From NCBI GenBank assembly GCA_012178725.1, contig GCA_012178725.1_3030.1: a stretch of DNA of 64,000 bases; one strand, written 5' to 3'. This document shows positions 3,438 to 63,508 of the stretch, in pieces. Under the pieces are notes generated by a model. The model was not told where the DNA came from, did no database searches, and saw nothing but the letters and a program-made list of their open reading frames with translations. Source of the stretch: a phage. The translations under genes were made by a program, and so were the position numbers. Position 1 is the stretch's first letter; every line of letters starts with the position of its first letter.

Positions 3438-5495
3438 CTACATTTTGAACTTTTTAGACATTCCGTTGATGTTAACCAAAGAAGCCAAGATTTGAGAAAC
3501 TTCGTTTTCCTCTTCTTTTGATTCTTCTACAAGAAATTGATTAAATCCAGCCATTGGACGAACTTCACCAGTTTCCATTAAATGGTCGCCATCATATACC
3601 GATTCCTCTAATTGTTCAGAAGGAGGAACGATTGTACCTTCGATTAGATACTTGTTATAAGCAGTTTCTTTCATAAAGTACGTACTTACTTTATTAATCT
3701 TCAGTAAAATTCCACGCGGTAGAATAACTTCAGCTTCTGATGGAAATCCTGATAAATGACCTGGAACGATAACTTTGATTCGCTCAGCTCCTTTAATTAC
3801 CATACCCACGCTAGTTTCAGCATCTTCATTAGCATATGTAGAATGACTACCCATATGCATCAAATCTTCTGCGTCAACTGAACCTTCTCCTTCACCAGAA
3901 AATACTGCGCCGGAATCATCTAGAGCCATATAGTTTTTACCATGCTCACCGAAGATATTTGGTTTAAGAGATGTGGATACGAAGTTCTTGAAATAGAACA
4001 TTTTGTTTTCAATGTTATGACGCAAAGTTTTAAAGGTAACTTCTTGTCCGCGATAAAGCGTAGTTCCTGGAGGAAGAACTGAACCTTTAGCGAATGCAGA
4101 ATCCAACGTCTCGATGTGCTTAATAGCTCGTTCCATATATTCTTCACGGGTAGAATCTGGTTTACCCAAAAGGAACGAGTTCATTTCAACATATGAATCT
4201 GCACAATAATCTTCAATTACATCAGATTCGGCCTGAGTCAGTCCTTTTGGAGTTACTTCAGTGCTTGCGTATTCATATGCCTGGGCAGCAGATTCATTAA
4301 TCAATTTATAAATGCCATTCATGACAAATTGAATAATAGCTGTCTTTTCATCTGGCGTAGCTTTAGAACCTTTAACTAAATCATTAATAATTTTCTTAAT
4401 AACATCAAAGCTATTAGAAATATTAATGTCAGCAAGATCGCTTAAAATTTTATCAGTTTTATAATCAAAGAATTCTTTATTCTTTAAATATTCTTGAGAA
4501 CCTTGATATGTTATATCGCTCTGCAACTTGATAGATGGATCACGTAAACGTGCGTGGGCCAATGCAATATGATTTCGGAAGTTTTCTAGTTCATAATCGC
4601 TAGATTTAAAACGAGAAGCACTTCTCATACCACCGATAGCTCCTTTGCTGAAGTTTGAACCAATCTGGATAACGCCAGAGTTCATCGGACCTTCTGCTTT
4701 ATATACCGGAACTTTAGATTCAAACTCTTGATATTTCTTTGCAGCGAAGCTATCACCCTGAAGTGAAGCATCGACAGTAGAATATTGAGCTTGTGCTGCT
4801 AATCGACGACTAATTTTAGTTTTTTGAATAACAGCTTGATCCGTGCGCTTATCATTTTCTAAAGCAATAGAAGCAGCAACAGCGACAGCTTTAGGAACAG
4901 CATTACCTGTTTTAACATCTACATAAACATCACCGACCTTTGATTCAACTTTTGTGAATAACTCAGTTGAAATAGGAGGTACACCTGGAATGTCTTCTAA
5001 ATTGGCATTTTTACGGTAAACCATAATATATGCATATTTCTTATCATAGTCCCAGATTTCCTTTAAAAGAACATATCGACCTGCTCCTTTAGTACGTACT
5101 AAACGGTCAGCAATAACTTGCATTTGACGAGCAGCGCCATTTGTTTTACTCTTTAGTACACGGAATAAGCACGCGTCAATTTTATACTGCTTCATTGTTT
5201 GAAGAGCAGTATCAAAAACAGCATTAATGACGCCAATTGGATTTCCACCCAAGTTTCTAAGCTTAACCAGTGATAATTTCTCGTTGACACCTATCATTAC
5301 GATATGCATCATTTTATCGCCTGGCTTAACGTTTTTATTTGTATCACCACCAGAGGTGTATGTACAAAATCTAAATCCAGGAAGCACGCTTTCTTCGCCG
5401 GCTTGAATAGCAAAAATTTGTGGTATTTTATGCTTAGGATTTAAGTTAACAACCGGCGCCGAAGCGCCGTCAAATAATTCTGTAATAAGTTCCAT
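3438..5495 (-). CDS. Alt-like ADP-ribosyltransferase, paralog of alt
   Basis: 685 aa; N-terminal MELITELFD propeptide-like start; C-terminal R-S-E motifs (LYRGQ, FVSTSL, EAEVILPRG); central region diverged from neighbour. Confidence 0.8.
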   Translation of the reverse strand: MELITELFDGASAPVVNLNPKHKIPQIFAIQAGEESVLPGFRFCTYTSGGDTNKNVKPGDKMMHIVMIGVNEKLSLVKLRNLGGNPIGVINAVFDTALQTMKQYKIDACLFRVLKSKTNGAARQMQVIADRLVRTKGAGRYVLLKEIWDYDKKYAYIMVYRKNANLEDIPGVPPISTELFTKVESKVGDVYVDVKTGNAVPKAVAVAASIALENDKRTDQAVIQKTKISRRLAAQAQYSTVDASLQGDSFAAKKYQEFESKVPVYKAEGPMNSGVIQIGSNFSKGAIGGMRSASRFKSSDYELENFRNHIALAHARLRDPSIKLQSDITYQGSQEYLKNKEFFDYKTDKILSDLADINISNSFDVIKKIINDLVKGSKATPDEKTAIIQFVMNGIYKLINESAAQAYEYASTEVTPKGLTQAESDVIEDYCADSYVEMNSFLLGKPDSTREEYMERAIKHIETLDSAFAKGSVLPPGTTLYRGQEVTFKTLRHNIENKMFYFKNFVSTSLKPNIFGEHGKNYMALDDSGAVFSGEGEGSVDAEDLMHMGSHSTYANEDAETSVGMVIKGAERIKVIVPGHLSGFPSEAEVILPRGILLKINKVSTYFMKETAYNKYLIEGTIVPPSEQLEESVYDGDHLMETGEVRPMAGFNQFLVEESKEEENEVSQILASLVNINGMSKKFKM

Positions 5496-5498
5496 GAT

Positions 5499-7550
5499 TT
5501 ATCCTTGAACGAACTTGTAAGGCATGTTTGCAATATCTATGCAAGACGCAATAATTCCAAGAGATGATTCTACTTTCTGTTTAACATTTGATGAAACAAA
5601 TGATGCAAAGTCAACTCTATCTTCTATATCACCTGTCATTGTAACCAATTCACCAGTTTCCATTAAATGGTCTCCGTCATAGATTACCGATTCGGTGAGT
5701 TCTTCTGTGGTCATAACTTCAGCTTGAATAAGCTTGTTGTTAGTTTTAACTGTTCCATCATTGTAAGATGCATCGGTTATTTTATTAACTTTGACCATTA
5801 ATCCACGTGGCAAAATGACTTCCATTTCATTTGAAGGCGCTAAACTTCCACCGGGTAAAACAACATTGACCTTATCAGCCCCAGTAATAACCCATCCAAT
5901 TCCGACTAAATTATCGCTAGAATTAACAAGCCCTTCATCATTTTTATCGATAGAAATGTTTAGACGCTTTTCATCTGGTAAAACACCAATAGCTGAATCA
6001 GTCATCCAAGTACCAAAAATGTTTGGATATAATGATGTTGATACAAAATTTCTAAAATAAAAAACTCGATTTTTTACCAATGTTTCATATATTGAAGGTA
6101 ACATTCGCTGTGAACGATATAAAGTAATACCCTTTGGCAATCGATCACCATTTTTAAAGGCTGAATCTAAATTATCGATGGCTTGTTCTATTTCAGGTGC
6201 TGTTAAAATACTTGTACGCTCATCTGGATTATATAATCCCAAAAGAGCATTATTCATGTCTACATATCCTGAACCTACATATTCACGAATTCCGCGTTTT
6301 TGCGCTGGTGTGTATTTAGATGAATCTTTATTTTCGACTATAGAATGCAATGACCATCCAACAGTAAGAGCATATCCACGTAATTCTCTTCGAATAATCT
6401 TTGTTTTTATTGCATTCCAAGAATTTTGCACTAACTCATTATTCGCAGCGTCTTGATTTAAATGCGAATGCTTGTTAATATTTCTTTCTAACCAAGCACC
6501 TTTATATTTTTCTAAAGTATCATCGACTATAGAAGCAATAGTTTCTAAAGTTTTTATTGAAGTAATAGATTCTTTTCGTAATCTTTCTAAAGCTTTATTT
6601 TTTATTTCTGTATTAACATCAGTTTCTTTATCTTCAGGAATTATAGAAGCTTCTCTGAATGCCATTCCAGCTGTAACACTATTAAGAGCATTCTCTAATG
6701 CAAATCCTGAAGTAGAAATAACAGTTAATTCATTAGCATCAGAAATTAAAGGAGCGTCAGCAGGTTTATTTAATTCTGCTGCTGAAGCCTCAAATTTTTG
6801 AAACATCGGTGTTTCAAATCTAGAAGATTCCAATGACTGACTTTGTGCAATTGCTCTACGTGAAATTTTAACTTTAACGATTACAGCTTGGTCAGAACGT
6901 TTATCATTTTCTTGTGCAATAGATGCTGCAATTGCCTCATTTTTAGTTACTTGAGCTCCAGTATCTTTATTGATATAAACATCGCCGACTTTCGATTCAA
7001 CTTTAGTAAAGAGCTCGGTACTAATTTCCGGAACTCCTGGAATGTCTTCTAGTGATACATTTTTGCGATGTATAAGAATATATGCATACTTTTTATCATA
7101 ATCCCAGAGTTCCTTAAGAAGGACGTATCTGCCACCTGAACGACTACGGATAAGTCTATCAGCAATAACTTGAATTTGTCGAGCTTGGCCAGCAGTTTTA
7201 GACTTAAGAATACGAAGCATACAAGCATCAATTTTATACTGACGCATTGTTTGCATTGCAACAGTAAAAACTGAATTGATATAATTAATTGGGCTTGGAC
7301 CAAGACCTTTTAATTTAGCAATTGAACCTTTAGCAGTTAATGTAAAAGGAACAATATGCATCATTTTATCGCCCATTTTTAAATCACGATTAGTATCACC
7401 TCCAGATGTATAGGTACATAAACGAAAGCCTGGTTGTTCAATTGCATCATCAACATGAACTGAAAAAATTTGTGGTATTTTCTTCTTTGGATTTAAGTTT
7501 GTAATCGGAAGAGTAGTATCTTCGTCAAATAATTCTGTAATGAGTTCCAT
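5499..7550 (-). CDS. alt: Alt ADP-ribosyltransferase (capsid-packaged, injected)
   Basis: About 683 aa from second ATG (SD GAGGA spacing); R-S-E motifs (LYRSQ, FVSTSL, EMEVILPRG); late promoter upstream; synteny between 54 and 30. Confidence 0.85.
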   Translation of the reverse strand: MELITELFDEDTTLPITNLNPKKKIPQIFSVHVDDAIEQPGFRLCTYTSGGDTNRDLKMGDKMMHIVPFTLTAKGSIAKLKGLGPSPINYINSVFTVAMQTMRQYKIDACMLRILKSKTAGQARQIQVIADRLIRSRSGGRYVLLKELWDYDKKYAYILIHRKNVSLEDIPGVPEISTELFTKVESKVGDVYINKDTGAQVTKNEAIAASIAQENDKRSDQAVIVKVKISRRAIAQSQSLESSRFETPMFQKFEASAAELNKPADAPLISDANELTVISTSGFALENALNSVTAGMAFREASIIPEDKETDVNTEIKNKALERLRKESITSIKTLETIASIVDDTLEKYKGAWLERNINKHSHLNQDAANNELVQNSWNAIKTKIIRRELRGYALTVGWSLHSIVENKDSSKYTPAQKRGIREYVGSGYVDMNNALLGLYNPDERTSILTAPEIEQAIDNLDSAFKNGDRLPKGITLYRSQRMLPSIYETLVKNRVFYFRNFVSTSLYPNIFGTWMTDSAIGVLPDEKRLNISIDKNDEGLVNSSDNLVGIGWVITGADKVNVVLPGGSLAPSNEMEVILPRGLMVKVNKITDASYNDGTVKTNNKLIQAEVMTTEELTESVIYDGDHLMETGELVTMTGDIEDRVDFASFVSSNVKQKVESSLGIIASCIDIANMPYKFVQG

Positions 7551-7573
7551 CATATCCTCTCTAGTGTTTATTC

Positions 7574-7586: not shown

Positions 7587-7604
7587 AAAGGCCCGAAGGC
7601 CTTT
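7587..7604 (-). other. intergenic stem-loop (tetraloop hairpin)
   Basis: AAAGGCC-CGAA-GGCCTTT perfect palindrome overlapping stop of upstream ORF; possible terminator or RNA stabiliser. Confidence 0.45.
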
Positions 7605-7791
7605 AATAATCTATTGGTAAGAGAGTACGATATATTTCAAACTTTGGACCTTTTTCATAGGCATCAAAAGTTTCTGTGAATTTATTATAAGCATATGCAT
7701 CTATAAATTCAATCATGATTTGTGATACAGAAGTAGAAACATCTCCACCTTCTTTTTGAGCCACGACAATTGTTTCTAAGTAAGCTTTCAT
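7603..7791 (-). CDS. hypothetical small protein between gene 30 and alt
   Basis: 62 aa ORF overlapping ligase stop. Confidence 0.4.
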   Translation of the reverse strand: MKAYLETIVVAQKEGGDVSTSVSQIMIEFIDAYAYNKFTETFDAYEKGPKFEIYRTLLPIDY

Positions 7792-9251
7792 AAACCAGTT
7801 ACCTCATGAAAATCACCAAATACATCTTCGAATGTATTAGCTTTAGTTTTATCTTCACGTAAACGAATCGCAATCGGAAGAAATAATTTAACGTAATCAG
7901 TGCGGCCATCAGATTTTAACCAACCGTTGCATTCGCACTCTAGAATTTTTCCAATATAATAATTTTGGTTTTCCATAATGCGAGTACGGTCAAGTTCATG
8001 CGATTTTACACCGGCTTTATCTTTTAAGCCTGAACCAGCATTTACTTTAATTTTTCCACACTCTGATTCAAGAATAAATCCACCCGCTTTAGTAGGGTCT
8101 TTACGGTGAGGATAAATTCCTACAATTTTTAAATCAACATCAATTACTTCTTTAAATTTATAGAGATTTTTTGAACGAGCATTTTCCCATAATCCATCGA
8201 TATTTTTGAGAATAATACCTTCAAGACCTTGGTCAATATATTTTTTATAAATTACCTTAGCTTCATTTAGGTTATTTACTACCTGGTTTTCAATTAAAAT
8301 TACTTTATCATATCCTGATGTCATTTGTTCTAGTTTAGAAAAACGTACATCATATTTTAAACGAAACGCTGGAAGACCGTATATTTCTACCAACGGGACA
8401 TAATCCCAGACCTGAAACTTCATACATTGAGCTTCTTTTTCAGAAATGGTTCCTTTTAAGGATTTATTGGCGATTCCATTAGAAGTAGTACGAGATTCCG
8501 CTACTTCGGCGAATTCTTTAGCTTTACTAATTTCAGGATAAGCATCAAAAAGAAAATCTAGGCCTTCTGGTTCCTTTTTAACTTGCTCATGGTATACCAA
8601 TTCGCCATCAATTAACACACCTTCTGGATGAATCTGGCGGGCTTCAGCAGTCATTTTGATTAACTCTTCTTTAAGAAGATCTAATCCTAGATATTCATTA
8701 CCAGCTCGTGATAAAAGACGAACATCATCTAATTCATCGCCTCGGACTTCAGCAAAACACCGAGCTCCATCAGCTTTTAACTGCGCAAAAGCTGGAAACT
8801 TGATATTCTTACTAATGCCTTTTTCATCATAAGAACTTGCCAGCATTTGAGGTTGTTCAGGAATTAAACCTGGCCAAACTTTGTTTGCAATAGATACTGA
8901 AGCACCGCATTCAAGGTCTCGCATCATAACTCGACGCAAAACTTCAACATCATCCTTTTTACCATCGGTGATATATCCAGTTAATTCCTCAATTGCTGCA
9001 TTGCCAGTTAATTTCCGAGTAGCTAACGTGAATTCAATGAAGTCAAGCATATCGGTAATAGTCAGCATTCCAAAACTCTGGGTAGCAATACCAGGTTTAG
9101 GCCATTTCTTGATATAATACTGCAACCCACGAGAATAAGTTAAACGATATACTCGTTTAAGCAATTCATTATCTTTATTCTTTTCAAGAATTGCTTGCTT
9201 CTGCTTAGTTGAACCAATAGATGCTATTTCGTTCAGAATTTTAAGAATCAT
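7788..9251 (-). CDS. 30: ATP-dependent DNA ligase gp30
   Basis: 487 aa; KADGAR adenylation motif; recognised as T4 DNA ligase. Confidence 0.95.
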   Translation of the reverse strand: MILKILNEIASIGSTKQKQAILEKNKDNELLKRVYRLTYSRGLQYYIKKWPKPGIATQSFGMLTITDMLDFIEFTLATRKLTGNAAIEELTGYITDGKKDDVEVLRRVMMRDLECGASVSIANKVWPGLIPEQPQMLASSYDEKGISKNIKFPAFAQLKADGARCFAEVRGDELDDVRLLSRAGNEYLGLDLLKEELIKMTAEARQIHPEGVLIDGELVYHEQVKKEPEGLDFLFDAYPEISKAKEFAEVAESRTTSNGIANKSLKGTISEKEAQCMKFQVWDYVPLVEIYGLPAFRLKYDVRFSKLEQMTSGYDKVILIENQVVNNLNEAKVIYKKYIDQGLEGIILKNIDGLWENARSKNLYKFKEVIDVDLKIVGIYPHRKDPTKAGGFILESECGKIKVNAGSGLKDKAGVKSHELDRTRIMENQNYYIGKILECECNGWLKSDGRTDYVKLFLPIAIRLREDKTKANTFEDVFGDFHEVTGL

Positions 9252-9517
9252 TGTTCATCCTTTAGAGTTTGGTTTACAGCTCTATTATAAATCAATTCAT
9301 CATTAAGCTCAGTCAAAGACCTGTGGTACGTGGTTCTAACTTTATTTCCTTGCATCCAGTGCTTGACGTAAATGAAACCTTGTTCTACGCATTTTTTAAA
9401 AATTCGTTCGTCTTTTTGAGCACGGAATTCTGGATTGCATCTAAAAAATTGATTTACGTGACCGTAATCACGTGTAGTATTACCTTCATTTTCATAAATA
9501 GTATGAACAACAAACAT
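9248..9517 (-). CDS. hypothetical protein (30.1-like position)
   Basis: 89 aa ORF overlapping neighbours by 4 nt. Confidence 0.5.
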   Translation of the reverse strand: MFVVHTIYENEGNTTRDYGHVNQFFRCNPEFRAQKDERIFKKCVEQGFIYVKHWMQGNKVRTTYHRSLTELNDELIYNRAVNQTLKDEQ

Positions 9518-10359
9518 TAGAATGCTCCTTGAAAAATATTATCACCACTAGTAGGTCTATTATACAAATACTCTATGCCACCAGGTTTAATATAGTTCCA
9601 TGTATGAAATGGATGCACATGATATGGATGTGTATAATATGGATGGTATGGATTTAATCCAGGAGTTCTCCAGGTAGTATTCCAACGAAAAGAATCGTTT
9701 TTAATCATCTTTTCAATTGCATCTTTTACAGCTTTTTCACTATCAAAACTTTCTTTATTTTCCTTCAATGGAAAAAGCTTATTCTCTACATCATTCCATG
9801 TATAAACTCGCTGAGCAGTTTTTGGAATACTGTCACGTTCCCCTCGAGCCATCCAATACACAGGAACACGTAATATTTCACTCGCATGATCGCAGTGATG
9901 AGCGAGATCGTCAATATAACAAATTACGTTATATTTCTCTTTTGCCTTTTTGAACAACTCTTCTTTTGAAGAATCATGACCACACATCATTACTTCTGAG
10001 AAGGCACCAGGAAAAAGAGCATTCAAATTAAATTGACGATTCAGCAGAGCGTCAATAGAATCACCCAGCGCTGTAACAGCTACAAAATTATAATCTTCTT
10101 TTAACTTGTTAATTACACACAGAGCATCTTTATATGGAGACAAGTAACGAATAAAATCTGATCGATTGTATTTTTCAATTAACTTAACACCAAGTTCTTC
10201 ATCACAATTAAAAAGTTTACCTGGAGAAATAAATTTCTCATCTTGGATCATTTTTAAAATATGTTCCAACGGAAGATTATATTTCTGAGCAAAATAAGGA
10301 AGGCCTGATTGCCAGCTTAAACATACTCCATCAATATCAGTTAAAATAGTAGGCTTCAT
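9517..10359 (-). CDS. HAD-superfamily hydrolase-like protein with His/Tyr-rich C-terminal tail
   Basis: N-terminal DIDGV (HAD motif I), later ICYIDD; C-terminus PYHPYYTHPYHVHPFHTW. Confidence 0.55.
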   Translation of the reverse strand: MKPTILTDIDGVCLSWQSGLPYFAQKYNLPLEHILKMIQDEKFISPGKLFNCDEELGVKLIEKYNRSDFIRYLSPYKDALCVINKLKEDYNFVAVTALGDSIDALLNRQFNLNALFPGAFSEVMMCGHDSSKEELFKKAKEKYNVICYIDDLAHHCDHASEILRVPVYWMARGERDSIPKTAQRVYTWNDVENKLFPLKENKESFDSEKAVKDAIEKMIKNDSFRWNTTWRTPGLNPYHPYYTHPYHVHPFHTWNYIKPGGIEYLYNRPTSGDNIFQGAF

Positions 10360-10820
10360 AGAGAGTCTCTTAATAGGTTTAACACATCAATAAATTCAGC
10401 TTCGGTTAGTATTGTATCATCTTTTGTTAGACCACTAGCCATGCTGTGCTTCAAAACTTTTCCTTTCGAGGCTTGTAATGCATCACGAAAGCCCTTGTTT
10501 TGAATCGCTGCTTCAAAATATGCATTTGTGTATAATTCTTTCCACGCTGGGGAGTATCTTGAAAACGGAACTCCAAGCCAGAAGAGGGTCCCACGGTCCT
10601 GAGCTCTAGCATAAGACCTTCCAGCTTGTTGGGCGGCAAGCCCGGATAACCCAAATATACGACGTTGTTGTTCAACATTTTTCACCTTGCATCCTTGGAG
10701 GAATCCTTCAAGACCTCCAAATTGAATATCATCCATAACGAAAGGCCATTGGGCGAAATTACTTAATGCACATGATGGCCACCTAAAATTGCTTCTAATC
10801 TCTAGCTCAGACATTTTCAA
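10356..10820 (-). CDS. NADAR-domain protein (YbiA-like)
   Basis: 154 aa; LSNFAQWP ... EGFLQGCK matches NADAR core FSNFAxWP ... EHYFQAQK. Confidence 0.65.
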   Translation of the reverse strand: MKMSELEIRSNFRWPSCALSNFAQWPFVMDDIQFGGLEGFLQGCKVKNVEQQRRIFGLSGLAAQQAGRSYARAQDRGTLFWLGVPFSRYSPAWKELYTNAYFEAAIQNKGFRDALQASKGKVLKHSMASGLTKDDTILTEAEFIDVLNLLRDSL

Positions 10821-11013
10821 TGCTTATAATTTCAACATCAGCCCAATGACCATAGTTTGGTAGACGAAATTCAACTGGCCAGTCACTGCCTTTTTCTAAT
10901 ATAATAGACTTAACTTGTGGTTCTTCGTGTTCATCAGTATATGGATTTTTATCTGTTACTTTATATGTGACCTTAATGTACTGAATTCCAAAAATCTTAT
11001 TAATTATATTCAT
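10807..11013 (-). CDS. hypothetical small protein
   Basis: 68 aa ORF in tightly packed early gene array. Confidence 0.45.
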   Translation of the reverse strand: MNIINKIFGIQYIKVTYKVTDKNPYTDEHEEPQVKSIILEKGSDWPVEFRLPNYGHWADVEIISIENV

Positions 11014-11207
11014 ACTAATTCCTTTAATCCGTAAATAGGAGATAATTCATCACCCATACGAAGGTCTTCATTTCCATCTACCCAAGAAACAATATAAGCC
11101 TCTTTTATTTGAATACCACTCCATTTAAATGGAGGTAGAACCTTAGAAATTAATCCAGGTATACCAACTCCCTTTAATTCAACAGTTTGACCTAAAAAGA
11201 ATTTCAT
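11010..11207 (-). CDS. hypothetical small protein
   Basis: 65 aa ORF, overlaps neighbours by 1-4 nt. Confidence 0.45.
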   Translation of the reverse strand: MKFFLGQTVELKGVGIPGLISKVLPPFKWSGIQIKEAYIVSWVDGNEDLRMGDELSPIYGLKELV

Positions 11208-11494
11208 TAGAACCTCATCTGAAAACCGTGCGATTTAACATTACCGCTGCCAATATCAGAAATGTTAATTTCACGCGCAATTGAAGGGTCAATGTCAATT
11301 TCGCGATTGAGTTTAGTGATAGCTAAAGTATCGCGCCCATTTACAGTACGGAACTCTAAAGGACATACTACATTAACGTAGTTTTTAATCGATTCGCTGG
11401 TAGGTTGCAAATGAGCAGGAAGGTCTTTAGGCGCCTTAGAGAAAACCACTTCACAGAAGTTTTTACGAGTATCAAAATAAGTAGTCATAAACAT
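11207..11494 (-). CDS. hypothetical protein
   Basis: 95 aa ORF with GAGGAAAA SD 7 nt upstream. Confidence 0.5.
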   Translation of the reverse strand: MFMTTYFDTRKNFCEVVFSKAPKDLPAHLQPTSESIKNYVNVVCPLEFRTVNGRDTLAITKLNREIDIDPSIAREINISDIGSGNVKSHGFQMRF

Positions 11495-11511
11495 AGTATT
11501 TTCCTCAGCAA

Positions 11512-11525
11512 GGGGCCGAAGCCCC
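11512..11525 (-). other. intergenic tetraloop hairpin
   Basis: GGGGC-CGAA-GCCCC (UUCG on minus) between two minus-strand ORFs, just upstream of SD. Confidence 0.45.
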
Positions 11526-11535
11526 TCATTTTATT

Positions 11536-11913
11536 TTAAATATCAAATTCGTTAAGAACTACATCAAAGATTGCTTCAAGATGCTCAGGTTTAGCTCTAT
11601 TACTCAGAATATGACGAATCCAAGTTTTAACCAAAAGCTTGCGATTAGCACCATTCCAGCAAGGATGAGTCCCTAAATCACGTTGACGAAAATCATCATC
11701 CAGAGCGATTTTGAAGTTTGAACCTTCCATTGTGATTGAAACCGTGATTCCATTTTCAAATCGCATATAAACGTAGTTAGGAGTCATATACTGTTCAATT
11801 TCGCATACTGATCCATTTTGATGTTTCCAAAGGCAGATAGTATCAATAGAACCTGCAATACCATTAGAAACATATTTACGTTCAAAGTTGATGTAGTTCA
11901 TTTTATTCTCCAA
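11536..11913 (-). CDS. hypothetical protein
   Basis: 125 aa ORF. Confidence 0.5.
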   Translation of the reverse strand: MENKMNYINFERKYVSNGIAGSIDTICLWKHQNGSVCEIEQYMTPNYVYMRFENGITVSITMEGSNFKIALDDDFRQRDLGTHPCWNGANRKLLVKTWIRHILSNRAKPEHLEAIFDVVLNEFDI

Positions 11914-11970
11914 GATGTTTAATTGCGGTACAGGTATATAATATCATATCCTGTACCAAAGTAAACTATT

Positions 11971-12339
11971 TTATGCAACTTTAATCCAATTATCTAAATT
12001 TAATTCACCTTTGGCTTTCATTTTTTCAATCAAGAGGTCAGCGGTAATACGACCATTTTGATACCACGTAACATCTTCAGAGTAACCAGTTTCTTTATCT
12101 TCATAAGTCTCACAACGAATTTTACCAATAATCAAAGTTTTCAATTCGTATGTATCTCCAGTAAAAAAGTTAGTTAACATTATTTTCCAAGAGAAATCAT
12201 CAGAAGGACCTTCAGGAGTCATGCAACCTACAAATTCAAATTGTTCTTTGTATAAGTGCCACTGAAGTTCTTTAGTTTCGATAGCTTTATAGCCGTCGTG
12301 ATCTTTACCTTTGATGTATGAGTTAAGATTGATTTTCAT
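11971..12339 (-). CDS. hypothetical protein
   Basis: 122 aa ORF with own early promoter. Confidence 0.5.
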   Translation of the reverse strand: MKINLNSYIKGKDHDGYKAIETKELQWHLYKEQFEFVGCMTPEGPSDDFSWKIMLTNFFTGDTYELKTLIIGKIRCETYEDKETGYSEDVTWYQNGRITADLLIEKMKAKGELNLDNWIKVA

Positions 12340-12361
12340 TTTATTCTCCTTTGTTTGTGTA

Positions 12362-12398
12362 AGATAATACTATCACAAAGGAACTATACTGTAAACAA
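12362..12398 (-). promoter_or_regulatory. T4-type early promoter
   Basis: GTTTAC, 17 nt spacer, ATAGTATTAT on minus strand. Confidence 0.5.
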
Positions 12399-12411
12399 CT
12401 TTATGCAATCT

Positions 12412-12444
12412 TTGGAAAATAAAAAAGGACTCCCGAAGGAGTCC
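12412..12444 (-). terminator. rho-independent terminator
   Basis: GGACTCC-UUCG-GGAGTCC followed by UUUUUUAUUUU on minus strand, directly after stop of ORF 12450-12668. Confidence 0.7.
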
Positions 12445-12449
12445 TCAAC

Positions 12450-12668
12450 TTATGCTTTCTGCTTACCAAAACGAGAAGCATCATCTCGAAGAACCGCACG
12501 TGCTCGGCGCATGATCTTCTCAACAGTTTGATTGATACGAGAGTTCGACCCACGCTTGTAGCCAGCGCGTTTAGAATCACCAACTTTCTTTTCAACTGCT
12601 TTCTTTGCTTTAACTTGTTTTGCCATTATAAATTCTCTTTTAAATGAAAATGCAGGACTTATTGGCAT
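12450..12668 (-). CDS. small highly basic protein (start may be internal ATG at 12626)
   Basis: Lys/Arg-rich 58-72 aa (MAKQVKAKKAVEKKVGDSKRAGYKRG...); followed by strong terminator. Confidence 0.5.
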   Translation of the reverse strand: MPISPAFSFKREFIMAKQVKAKKAVEKKVGDSKRAGYKRGSNSRINQTVEKIMRRARAVLRDDASRFGKQKA

Positions 12669-12870
12669 TGCCTGCGCAAGCCCTCAAGGGGGTACTTAGG
12701 TTTTGTATATTTACCGACAGGATAACCATAAACCCGTCATCATTCACATTCAAGAGGTACACCGTAAAACTGCCGGGGTCTTAAAACTATAATGATTCGC
12801 AAATCATTAATCAGACAGTTCGACGGCTCCTCGATTTTAGCTCACACTAAGGCAGTGAATCTCCAATAAA

Positions 12871-13119
12871 TTACTTCAGTGTTACCACAAAGTGACGAAC
12901 TGCTTTTCGTGCAGCAGAAGCCAGAGGCTTAGCATATTTAAGTTCATCTTTTTCCTGAAGCTCAGCAGCTAATGCAGTTTGAGCAGGATTCAGATGTTTG
13001 AAATAACGCAGGATTTCAAGAGCTTCGGCTTCAACATCAATAGATGCGCCATAGTTTTCGTGACCATTATTCCATGCGTTTCGTTGCAGTTCAAGAGCGT
13101 GTTGTAATTGTTTAATCAT
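12871..13119 (-). CDS. rIII: rIII lysis-inhibition accessory protein
   Basis: 82 aa; position between 31 and the 30.x block; recognised as T4 rIII. Confidence 0.8.
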   Translation of the reverse strand: MIKQLQHALELQRNAWNNGHENYGASIDVEAEALEILRYFKHLNPAQTALAAELQEKDELKYAKPLASAARKAVRHFVVTLK

Positions 13120-13258
13120 TTAAAAATTCTCGTTAGAGATTAAAACTCGGTAGTCACGTTCTTCTGAATTTCATCTTCTTTCGACAGATCTCTCAGTTGT
13201 AGACTACCACATAGAATTGTTCGGTTAACTTATTATTCCGACGCCCAATTCATATTAT

Positions 13259-13266
13259 TATTTATA
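13259..13266 (-). promoter_or_regulatory. possible late promoter (TATAAATA) in 31-rIII intergenic region
   Basis: Exact TATAAATA on minus strand; function not assessable from sequence. Confidence 0.25.
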
Positions 13267-13602
13267 TCACTTATAAAGACACGGAATAGCTTTATAATGA
13301 CAAGTAACGAATTTTTGTTTAATTTCTTTTGGCTGCTTAAGACCCAGAGCTACAAAAGGATGCGGAACATTTCGAATTTGACCAACTGGAAGAGAAGTCA
13401 AATCGCCAACTTCGCAAAAACCTTCAGGAACATCAGGACCAACAGAGTGAACTACACACAGTTCAGGAACTTCACCTTGAACACGTTTACCGATAATAAG
13501 TCCTGATTCTGTAACTTCTTCATCACCAGCTTGTGCAGGTTCAGAAACTAAAATCACATATTCACCGACAGCACGAATTGGTAGCTGTTGTACTTCAGAC
13601 AT
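13267..13602 (-). CDS. 31: gp31 co-chaperonin (GroES analogue for capsid folding)
   Basis: 111 aa from second ATG; [15 protein letters not shown] start recognised as T4 gp31. Confidence 0.9.
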
Positions 13603-62285: not shown

Positions 62286-62888
62286 TTATAGATTAAATCC
62301 TTCAAAATCAAGAGTATAGATAGTGTATGTTGAATACTTTTTGTACTCATATCTATCTGCAATTCTAAATACACTTCCAGCTGGTATCATTACTTCTTGT
62401 TCATCTGAAACTAATTCCATATTACGATAACGATGGCTATCCGGAAACTTAAAGTTTGGATTGTATTCTTTACAGCGCAGAGCTTTTATAGCATACTCCT
62501 GGAAATTGAATACCATAGGAGCTTTGAATTCAAAAATAACTTGTGTGTTATACTCTAAACCAGAAGCAAAATGTAGAGCTATATTTTTATCATATGAAGC
62601 TGATACGACTTTATCAAATGTAATAATATCAATTCCTTGATTTAACACCTGCTTAGTCTCAGCTGGAACACCTCTCCAAAGAGGTTTATCGTTTGGAACC
62701 AAACGAGATTTGATTATTTCATTTAACCAAGTATGGTCATCTGGCTTATTAGTAATACAATGAATTAAAAGTTCAATTTCAGATAAATTAAACCCTTCAG
62801 AAAGTAATTCTTCACGAATAGAAGCACGCACCGATGCATCCATTGATTTTATTTTAAAATCTTTTAGTTGCATTACTGAGTATTTCAT
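62286..62888 (-). CDS. modA: ModA ADP-ribosyltransferase
   Basis: 200 aa; R-S-E motifs (LWRGV, VVSASYD, EQEVMIP). Confidence 0.85.
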   Translation of the reverse strand: MKYSVMQLKDFKIKSMDASVRASIREELLSEGFNLSEIELLIHCITNKPDDHTWLNEIIKSRLVPNDKPLWRGVPAETKQVLNQGIDIITFDKVVSASYDKNIALHFASGLEYNTQVIFEFKAPMVFNFQEYAIKALRCKEYNPNFKFPDSHRYRNMELVSDEQEVMIPAGSVFRIADRYEYKKYSTYTIYTLDFEGFNL

Positions 62889-63508
62889 TCAACTACCTCA
62901 ATATCATAAACTTTAAATGTTCCAAATGAATCGTGTAATTTTTCTTTTGAAATAGAAGTTATTCTATACTTTCCAATTGGAATCATCCATTCTTGTTCAC
63001 GCACAATCATCATTAAGTTATCAGTACGCTCTGAATCTAATCCATCAGTATCTTCATACGTGTACTTAAACTCAGTATTAGGAGAAGAAAGTATAATATC
63101 GCTGATATGGTCAGAATAATTAAAAGCTTTATTAGTTTTTAAGCGAAGTATTATTTTAGTAAAATATTCAGCATAAGAAAAAGAACATGCTGTGAGCAAA
63201 CTAGTAGTAAATGAATCTACTCTATTCGTTGAAAACACTTCTCCAACTTGTAAATCTTTAATAAGTTCTTCTGTTGATTTTGATATACCACGATATAGCT
63301 GATAAGGAGATTTAGTTAAATGCTTTTTAATGATTTTATTCAACTGCCTATGAAGAGCTTCATTCTTTTTGGCTTCCATACATTGCCAAAGAATTGACTG
63401 TTCAAAGTCAGTAAATTTTTCACAGACCTTTTTATACATATCATATTGAAAATCAACGCTTTCAGCTTTTATAGATAACTGTTCAACATCTGCAAGATTA
63501 ATAATCAT
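62885..63508 (-). CDS. modB: ModB ADP-ribosyltransferase
   Basis: 207 aa; R-S-E motifs (LYRGI, FTTSL, EQEWMIP); overlaps modA start by 4 nt. Confidence 0.85.
   Translation of the reverse strand: MIINLADVEQLSIKAESVDFQYDMYKKVCEKFTDFEQSILWQCMEAKKNEALHRQLNKIIKKHLTKSPYQLYRGISKSTEELIKDLQVGEVFSTNRVDSFTTSLLTACSFSYAEYFTKIILRLKTNKAFNYSDHISDIILSSPNTEFKYTYEDTDGLDSERTDNLMMIVREQEWMIPIGKYRITSISKEKLHDSFGTFKVYDIEVVE

Follow-up and report, generated by a model that had tools for sequence, protein, structure and literature searches.

The 64,000-nucleotide (nt) stretch of phage DNA analyzed here (GenBank assembly GCA_012178725.1; hereafter the window) comes from a T4-like phage (Tequatrovirus) and carries on its minus strand, ending at position 10356, a gene that is very probably the orthologue of T4 gene 30.3 (adfN), encoding a NADAR-fold enzyme that counters the DarTG1 defense system. 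The product and T4 gp30.3 are of equal length and identical at 150 of 152 residues, differing only by G29D and I125M. The NADAR fold and catalytic residues of T4 AdfN are retained, the C-terminus is intact and the gene order is T4-like; by analogy with the literature on the T4 protein, its enzymatic activity, DarTG1 specificity and lack of toxin binding would also be expected of the window protein.

Reading frame, locus and spread of adfN

The gene and the positions within it that bear on its function are as follows.

10356..10814, minus strand: adfN (T4 gene 30.3 orthologue), 152 codons plus stop (10356-10358), predicted stand-alone NADAR-fold DNA ADP-ribosylglycohydrolase
10728..10730, minus strand: codon 29 (GAT, Asp; Gly29 in T4), in the turn of the beta-hairpin that precedes the catalytic helix
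10707..10709, minus strand: Glu36 codon (GAA), in the catalytic helix, aligned to the Glu of YbiA SEHYFQ and equivalent to E43 of Phytophthora NADAR
10686..10688, minus strand: Lys43 codon (AAG), equivalent to K50 of Phytophthora NADAR
10446..10448, minus strand: His123 codon (CAC), directly after the last beta strand (residues 120-122 in the model)
10359..10403, minus strand: C-terminal helix, residues 138-152 (helix 138-151 in the model), same sequence as T4

The mechanical call of this open reading frame (ORF) opens at a TTG at 10820 and gives 154 residues, the length adopted in an earlier note on this DNA. That start is probably two codons too early, and translation likely begins at the ATG at 10814 (10814..10812), yielding 152 residues. 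The ATG is preferred because it overlaps the stop codon of gene 30.4 (ORF 10807..11013) as ATGTCTGA, because it gives the gene the 459-nt length annotated for 30.3 in T4, along with the same 8-nt overlap with 30.4, and because the residue numbers used in the literature for E36 and K43 then come out. On the minus strand, DNA ligase (7788..9251) is followed by 30.1, 30.2 (9517..10359), 30.3, 30.4, 30.5, 30.6 and 30.7, and then by 30.8, 30.9, rIII, 31, 31.1, 31.2 and cd; the whole block is collinear with T4. The T4-type synteny ligase-30.1-30.2-30.3-30.4 is thus present, and both order and overlaps agree with the T4 annotation. Many Tequatrovirus genomes match the region at 96-97% identity; the phage collection contains no identical record. 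The term 'hypervariable', which the earlier note applied to the block downstream of the ligase gene, is unfit for adfN, which is collinear with T4 and whose protein occurs in 1511 phage records. A scan of positions 7600-13400 for promoters and terminators showed no excess of sites over shuffled sequence and plays no part in the argument.

At the family level, the product matches Pfam PF08010 (Phage_30_3, 'Bacteriophage protein GP30.3') over the full profile (1-138 of 138; E=3.9e-69; 231.3 bits, the gathering threshold being 36 bits) and is assigned by PHROGs to phrog_652, 'unknown function', while NCBIfam covers neither adfN nor the Alt paralogues nor ModA/ModB. The 1511 phage records, found by tblastn, belong mostly to Straboviridae, with hosts including Escherichia, Klebsiella, Aeromonas, Acinetobacter and Vibrio, and 1667 gp30.3-type clusters at 50% identity emerged when 1.84 billion representatives were searched with a profile. 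Six metagenomic proteins (P0099, P0103, P0144, P0153, P0166 and P0207) carry the gp30.3-type domain in tandem or fused, the fusion partners being a GDSL lipase, Lgt (prolipoprotein diacylglyceryl transferase), a BspA-type leucine-rich repeat and an FtsW/RodA-like region; they could be genuine fusions of cellular origin or artifacts of gene calling. Over 12 kilobases (kb), the Tequatrovirus window shares 96.8% identity with GenBank PV654520.1, a record labeled 'Pseudomonas phage vB_PSGBLB0006' with P. aeruginosa as host; probably either this label is wrong or the sample was contaminated.

The function of adfN is already known, its family, fold, enzymology and counter-defense role having been published between 2012 and 2025, and a copy 99% identical to the tested T4 protein is of small value as a discovery. 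Its value lies in annotation. Public phage records with adfN, RefSeq T4 included, label the product 'hypothetical protein', and Pfam and PHROGs list no function, so annotation based on these tools would miss the gene. In phage EAWsc9 (GenBank PQ341120.1; L004, 301..759) the ORF is intact and carries no annotation at all. The assignment predicts that the window phage resists hosts carrying DarTG1.

NADAR fold, catalytic residues and published function

NADAR membership is established by four independent lines of evidence. The predicted fold of the window protein resembles NADAR structures only, as the structure prediction called for in the earlier note now indicates; about 133 residues of the 152 align to NADAR cores, leaving a stand-alone core domain without extensions. 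Both motifs from which the assignment was first drawn, LSNFAQWP and EGFLQGCK, are present in the product, E36, K43 and His123 are kept, and relatives match the Pfam NADAR model. When 60 family members were scanned singly, all matched PF08010 and 22 also matched the NADAR family PF08719 (best E=1.5e-7); in the protein P0198, the two models match over the same region. Pfam keeps the phage branch as a separate model, PF08010. A profile built from the family retrieves E. coli YbiA from the PDB (E=0.004), with LSNFA...EGFLQ..K aligned to FSNFA...SEHYFQAQKF.

Conservation was read from an alignment of 61 family members, in which S18-N19-F20, E36, Q40 and H123 never vary and at least 90% of the members keep K43. 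In the Phytophthora (Pn) NADAR, E43 contacts the distal ribose and K50 the pyrophosphate (PMC11543638), and the catalytic residue of the last strand differs by branch, being His in phage gp30.3, Glu in YbiA and Asp in DarG1-type NADARs (PMC11125620, PMC11543638). The reading frame of the window gene is intact and E36, K43 and H123 are as in T4. Residues 126-152 are identical to T4 with no frameshift, so that the C-terminal helix lost in phage RB69 is intact here.

The enzymology of the T4 protein is well documented. The ADP-ribose that gp30.3 hydrolyzes on DNA in vitro is linked to guanosine and not to thymidine (Cihlova et al. 2024, PMC11125620). The gene was found by crosses of DarTG1-resistant T2 or T4 with sensitive RB69, and was renamed adfN for anti-DarT factor NADAR (Johannesman et al., preprint PMC11257639; Nat Commun 2025, PMC11825919). 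AdfN is a guanine-specific DNA ADP-ribosylglycohydrolase, necessary and sufficient against DarTG1 and not DarTG2 (Cihlova 2024; Johannesman 2025). Deletion of adfN renders T4 and T2 about 10^4-fold sensitive, a phenotype specific to DarTG1 hosts, and ectopic AdfN(T4) restores plaquing of RB69 on DarTG1; the RB69 allele itself is defective, a frameshift removing its last 15 residues (Johannesman et al., PMC11825919). The purified protein strips ADP-ribose from DarT1-modified DNA; AdfN gives no protection from DarTG2, a two-hybrid assay showed no binding to DarT1, and the T4 enzyme is impaired by E36A, K43A and C-terminal truncation; the genetic evidence for DarTG1 resistance covers the T4 and T2 alleles only (Johannesman et al., PMC11825919). 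A 2026 study likewise reports T4 NADAR as active on guanosine-ADP-ribose, its summary table giving cytidine-ADP-ribose reversal for NADAR and YbiA-type enzymes only, not for the phage type (PMC12945103). The proposal that a phage copy could counter a host ADP-ribosylating defense of the DarTG type has therefore been demonstrated for a 99%-identical protein, T4 gp30.3/AdfN, against DarTG1 and not DarTG2 (PMC11825919; PMC11125620).

Together, these features suggest the following scheme. Lying in a tight run of overlapping minus-strand genes (30.7 to 30), adfN would probably be co-transcribed early in infection; early expression together with ADP-ribosyltransferases (ARTs) was stated by Iyer et al. 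2022, and we infer the same timing here. The 152-residue product would be a minimal NADAR-fold N-glycosidase. Once DarT1, the host toxin, has attached ADP-ribose to guanine in phage DNA undergoing replication, AdfN would hydrolyze the guanine-ADP-ribose bond, releasing ADP-ribose and restoring a replicable template. It may thus represent an orphan, phage-borne counterpart of the DarG1 antitoxin that acts enzymatically and without toxin binding.

Points against, alternative roles and neighboring genes

Several results weigh against this assignment. The window protein itself does not match the Pfam NADAR model PF08719 even at E<=10, and the PDB, searched by plain sequence, returned a chance match only (E=0.68); with direct profile and PDB sequence matches absent, it is fold, motifs and transitive homology that support NADAR membership. 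The profile search that the earlier note proposed as a check thus gave a split result, negative for the window protein, which matches PF08010 only, and positive for family members, 22 of 60 of which match PF08719. That note had also named the lack of a significant NADAR match as grounds for refuting the idea, a rule that wrongly rejects adfN. A further difficulty concerns the biology of the T4 protein: gp30.3 alone cannot protect E. coli against DarT1 (Cihlova et al. 2024, PMC11125620), and AdfN(T4) is no antitoxin in uninfected cells and hardly rescues phages other than T-even phages (Johannesman et al.), so a simple enzyme-only picture is incomplete. Full activity was seen only in T-even infection; DNA modification was excluded as the reason and an additional T-even protein was proposed (Johannesman et al.). 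Finally, Asp29 replaces a Gly kept in at least 90% of the 61 family members.

This last substitution could mean that the window allele is impaired, present but non-protective as in RB69, and the conservation of Gly29 together with the GAT (Asp) codon of the window speaks for such a reading. We consider it very unlikely. Neither the frame nor the catalytic residues nor the C-terminal helix is disrupted, the AlphaFold2 model is confident across the Asp29 region (block predicted local distance difference test score 97), and position 29 is polymorphic among viable relatives, being Ser in phage REP4 and Glu in the distant homologue P0057; Asp29 itself recurs, independently and on a different background, in one of 12 IMG/VR contigs. 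Inactivation by G29D was accordingly judged unlikely on the strength of this polymorphism in other isolates. Met125 is common to phages REP4 and FJ1. Judged from its sequence, the allele carrying G29D and I125M would be expected to act like that of T4.

Turning to other possible roles, the window encodes four ARTs, as the earlier note had observed: two Alt-like proteins match PF03496 and two others match phrog_832.

3438..5495, minus strand: Alt-like paralogue, 685 residues (PF03496, E=6e-20)
5499..7553, minus strand: Alt-like paralogue, 684 residues (PF03496, E=4e-34)
62286..62888 and 62885..63508: ModA/ModB-type proteins of 200 and 207 residues (phrog_832, 'RNA polymerase ADP-ribosylase')

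Both tandem Alt-like paralogues are full-length, whereas T4 has one alt plus alt.-1 and alt.-2, short remnants of an old duplication; two Alt genes are annotated in several Tequatrovirus records too. The presence of four such genes in the same window makes it conceivable that the main job of the adfN product is to reverse or tune ADP-ribosylation of host proteins or RNA by the phage's own two Alt, ModA and ModB, as the earlier note had also entertained, but no supporting evidence for reversal of a phage-made modification was found and we regard this role as extremely unlikely. T4 Alt, ModA and ModB modify protein arginine side chains, and ModB joins NAD-capped RNA to proteins. Neither protein arginines nor RNA-protein linkages are NADAR substrates; guanine-N2 ADP-ribose in nucleic acids is the target of all characterized NADARs, that of T4 included. 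The phenotype of an adfN deletion is, moreover, confined to DarTG1-carrying hosts, Alt and ModA go unmentioned in the Nat Commun paper, and the searched literature contains no link between the ARTs and adfN. Nor are these genes adjacent to adfN, the alt pair lying about 3-7 kb off beyond the ligase gene and modA/modB about 52 kb away on the opposite side. Equally hard to sustain is a role in degrading soluble ADP-ribose-derived immune signals, or riboflavin intermediates as for YbiA, instead of DNA adducts. Degradation of soluble signals was a 2022 prediction, since superseded by direct data: the 99%-identical T4 protein shows guanine de-ADP-ribosylation of DNA and a DarTG1-specific phenotype, and the Glu that defines YbiA is replaced by His in the gp30.3 family.

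Two further ORFs overlap the gene.

9517..10359, minus strand: gp30.2 orthologue, 280 residues, overlapping the adfN stop by 4 nt (PHROG 420, unknown function)
10451..10678, minus strand: ORF 30.3', 75 residues, inside adfN in the +1 frame (PF11097, DUF2883, E=3e-54), annotated in T4

The additional T-even protein proposed for AdfN might be sought among its overlapping neighbors, and gp30.2 (4-nt overlap) or gp30.4 (8-nt overlap) are candidates for such a cofactor, albeit unlikely ones. If either were to serve, the locus would constitute a two-component de-ADP-ribosylation module, not a lone enzyme. The N-terminus of gp30.2, MKPTILTDIDGVCLSW, contains a DxDGV motif typical of hydrolases of the haloacid dehalogenase (HAD) superfamily, and a homologue is named 'haloacid dehalogenase-like hydrolase' in one GenBank record; Pfam gave no match at E<=1 for 30.2, 30.4, 30.5 or 30.6. 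A gp30.2 homologue adjoins gp30.3, following it, in the distant Acinetobacter phage Konradin, and does not do so in Miro or JSE.

ORF 30.3' was compared across the window, T4, REP4, FJ1 and EAWsc9. Substitutions within the overlap fall mostly at adfN third positions, where any change is non-synonymous for 30.3'. Between the window and REP4, for example, adfN positions 1, 2 and 3 carry 2, 0 and 10 substitutions, which produce no change in AdfN and 11 changes among the 75 residues of 30.3'. The ATG of 30.3' is missing in FJ1, and the frame is closed in the distant homologues Miro and JSE. Given this third-position bias, the lost start codon and the closed frames, there is no sign of protein-level constraint on 30.3'. 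The location of the substitutions at adfN third positions led us to reject it as a real second gene as unsupported, and it is probably a shadow ORF and not a constrained gene.

Comparison with known systems

The closest relative, T4 gp30.3/AdfN, shares with the window protein its catalytic residues, genomic position and overlaps with 30.2 and 30.4, and differs in Gly29 and Ile125, replaced here by Asp and Met. More distant are the YbiA-family NADARs (E. coli YbiA, PDB 2b3w; Phytophthora nicotianae, PDB 8bau), which are 14-20% identical and carry a Glu where the window protein has His. YbiA types have been linked to N-glycosidase action on a riboflavin intermediate and to removal of cytidine-linked ADP-ribose, the latter not being attributed to the phage type.

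The antitoxin NADARs of DarG1 (BC4488 family, e.g., Geobacter/Trichlorobacter lovleyi, PDB 8bat) have Asp in the last strand, compared with His123 in the window protein, and possess an N-terminal extension absent from the phage NADAR, which consists of the core domain only. No darT1 toxin gene lies beside adfN, its neighbors being the 30.2 and 30.4 orthologues, neither with a Pfam match. In uninfected cells, DarG1 is not replaceable by T4 gp30.3.

Among phage-encoded factors, AdfA (T4 gp61.2) counters the same defense by different means: it has no enzymatic domain, and DarT1 is bound by its neutralizing variant; AdfN, in contrast, acts as an enzyme and shows no binding to the toxin. The NADARs of Bas32 and Bas60 are, like AdfN, NADAR enzymes directed against this defense, but they were acquired independently, belong to other NADAR branches and, unlike AdfN(T4), work outside their own phage.
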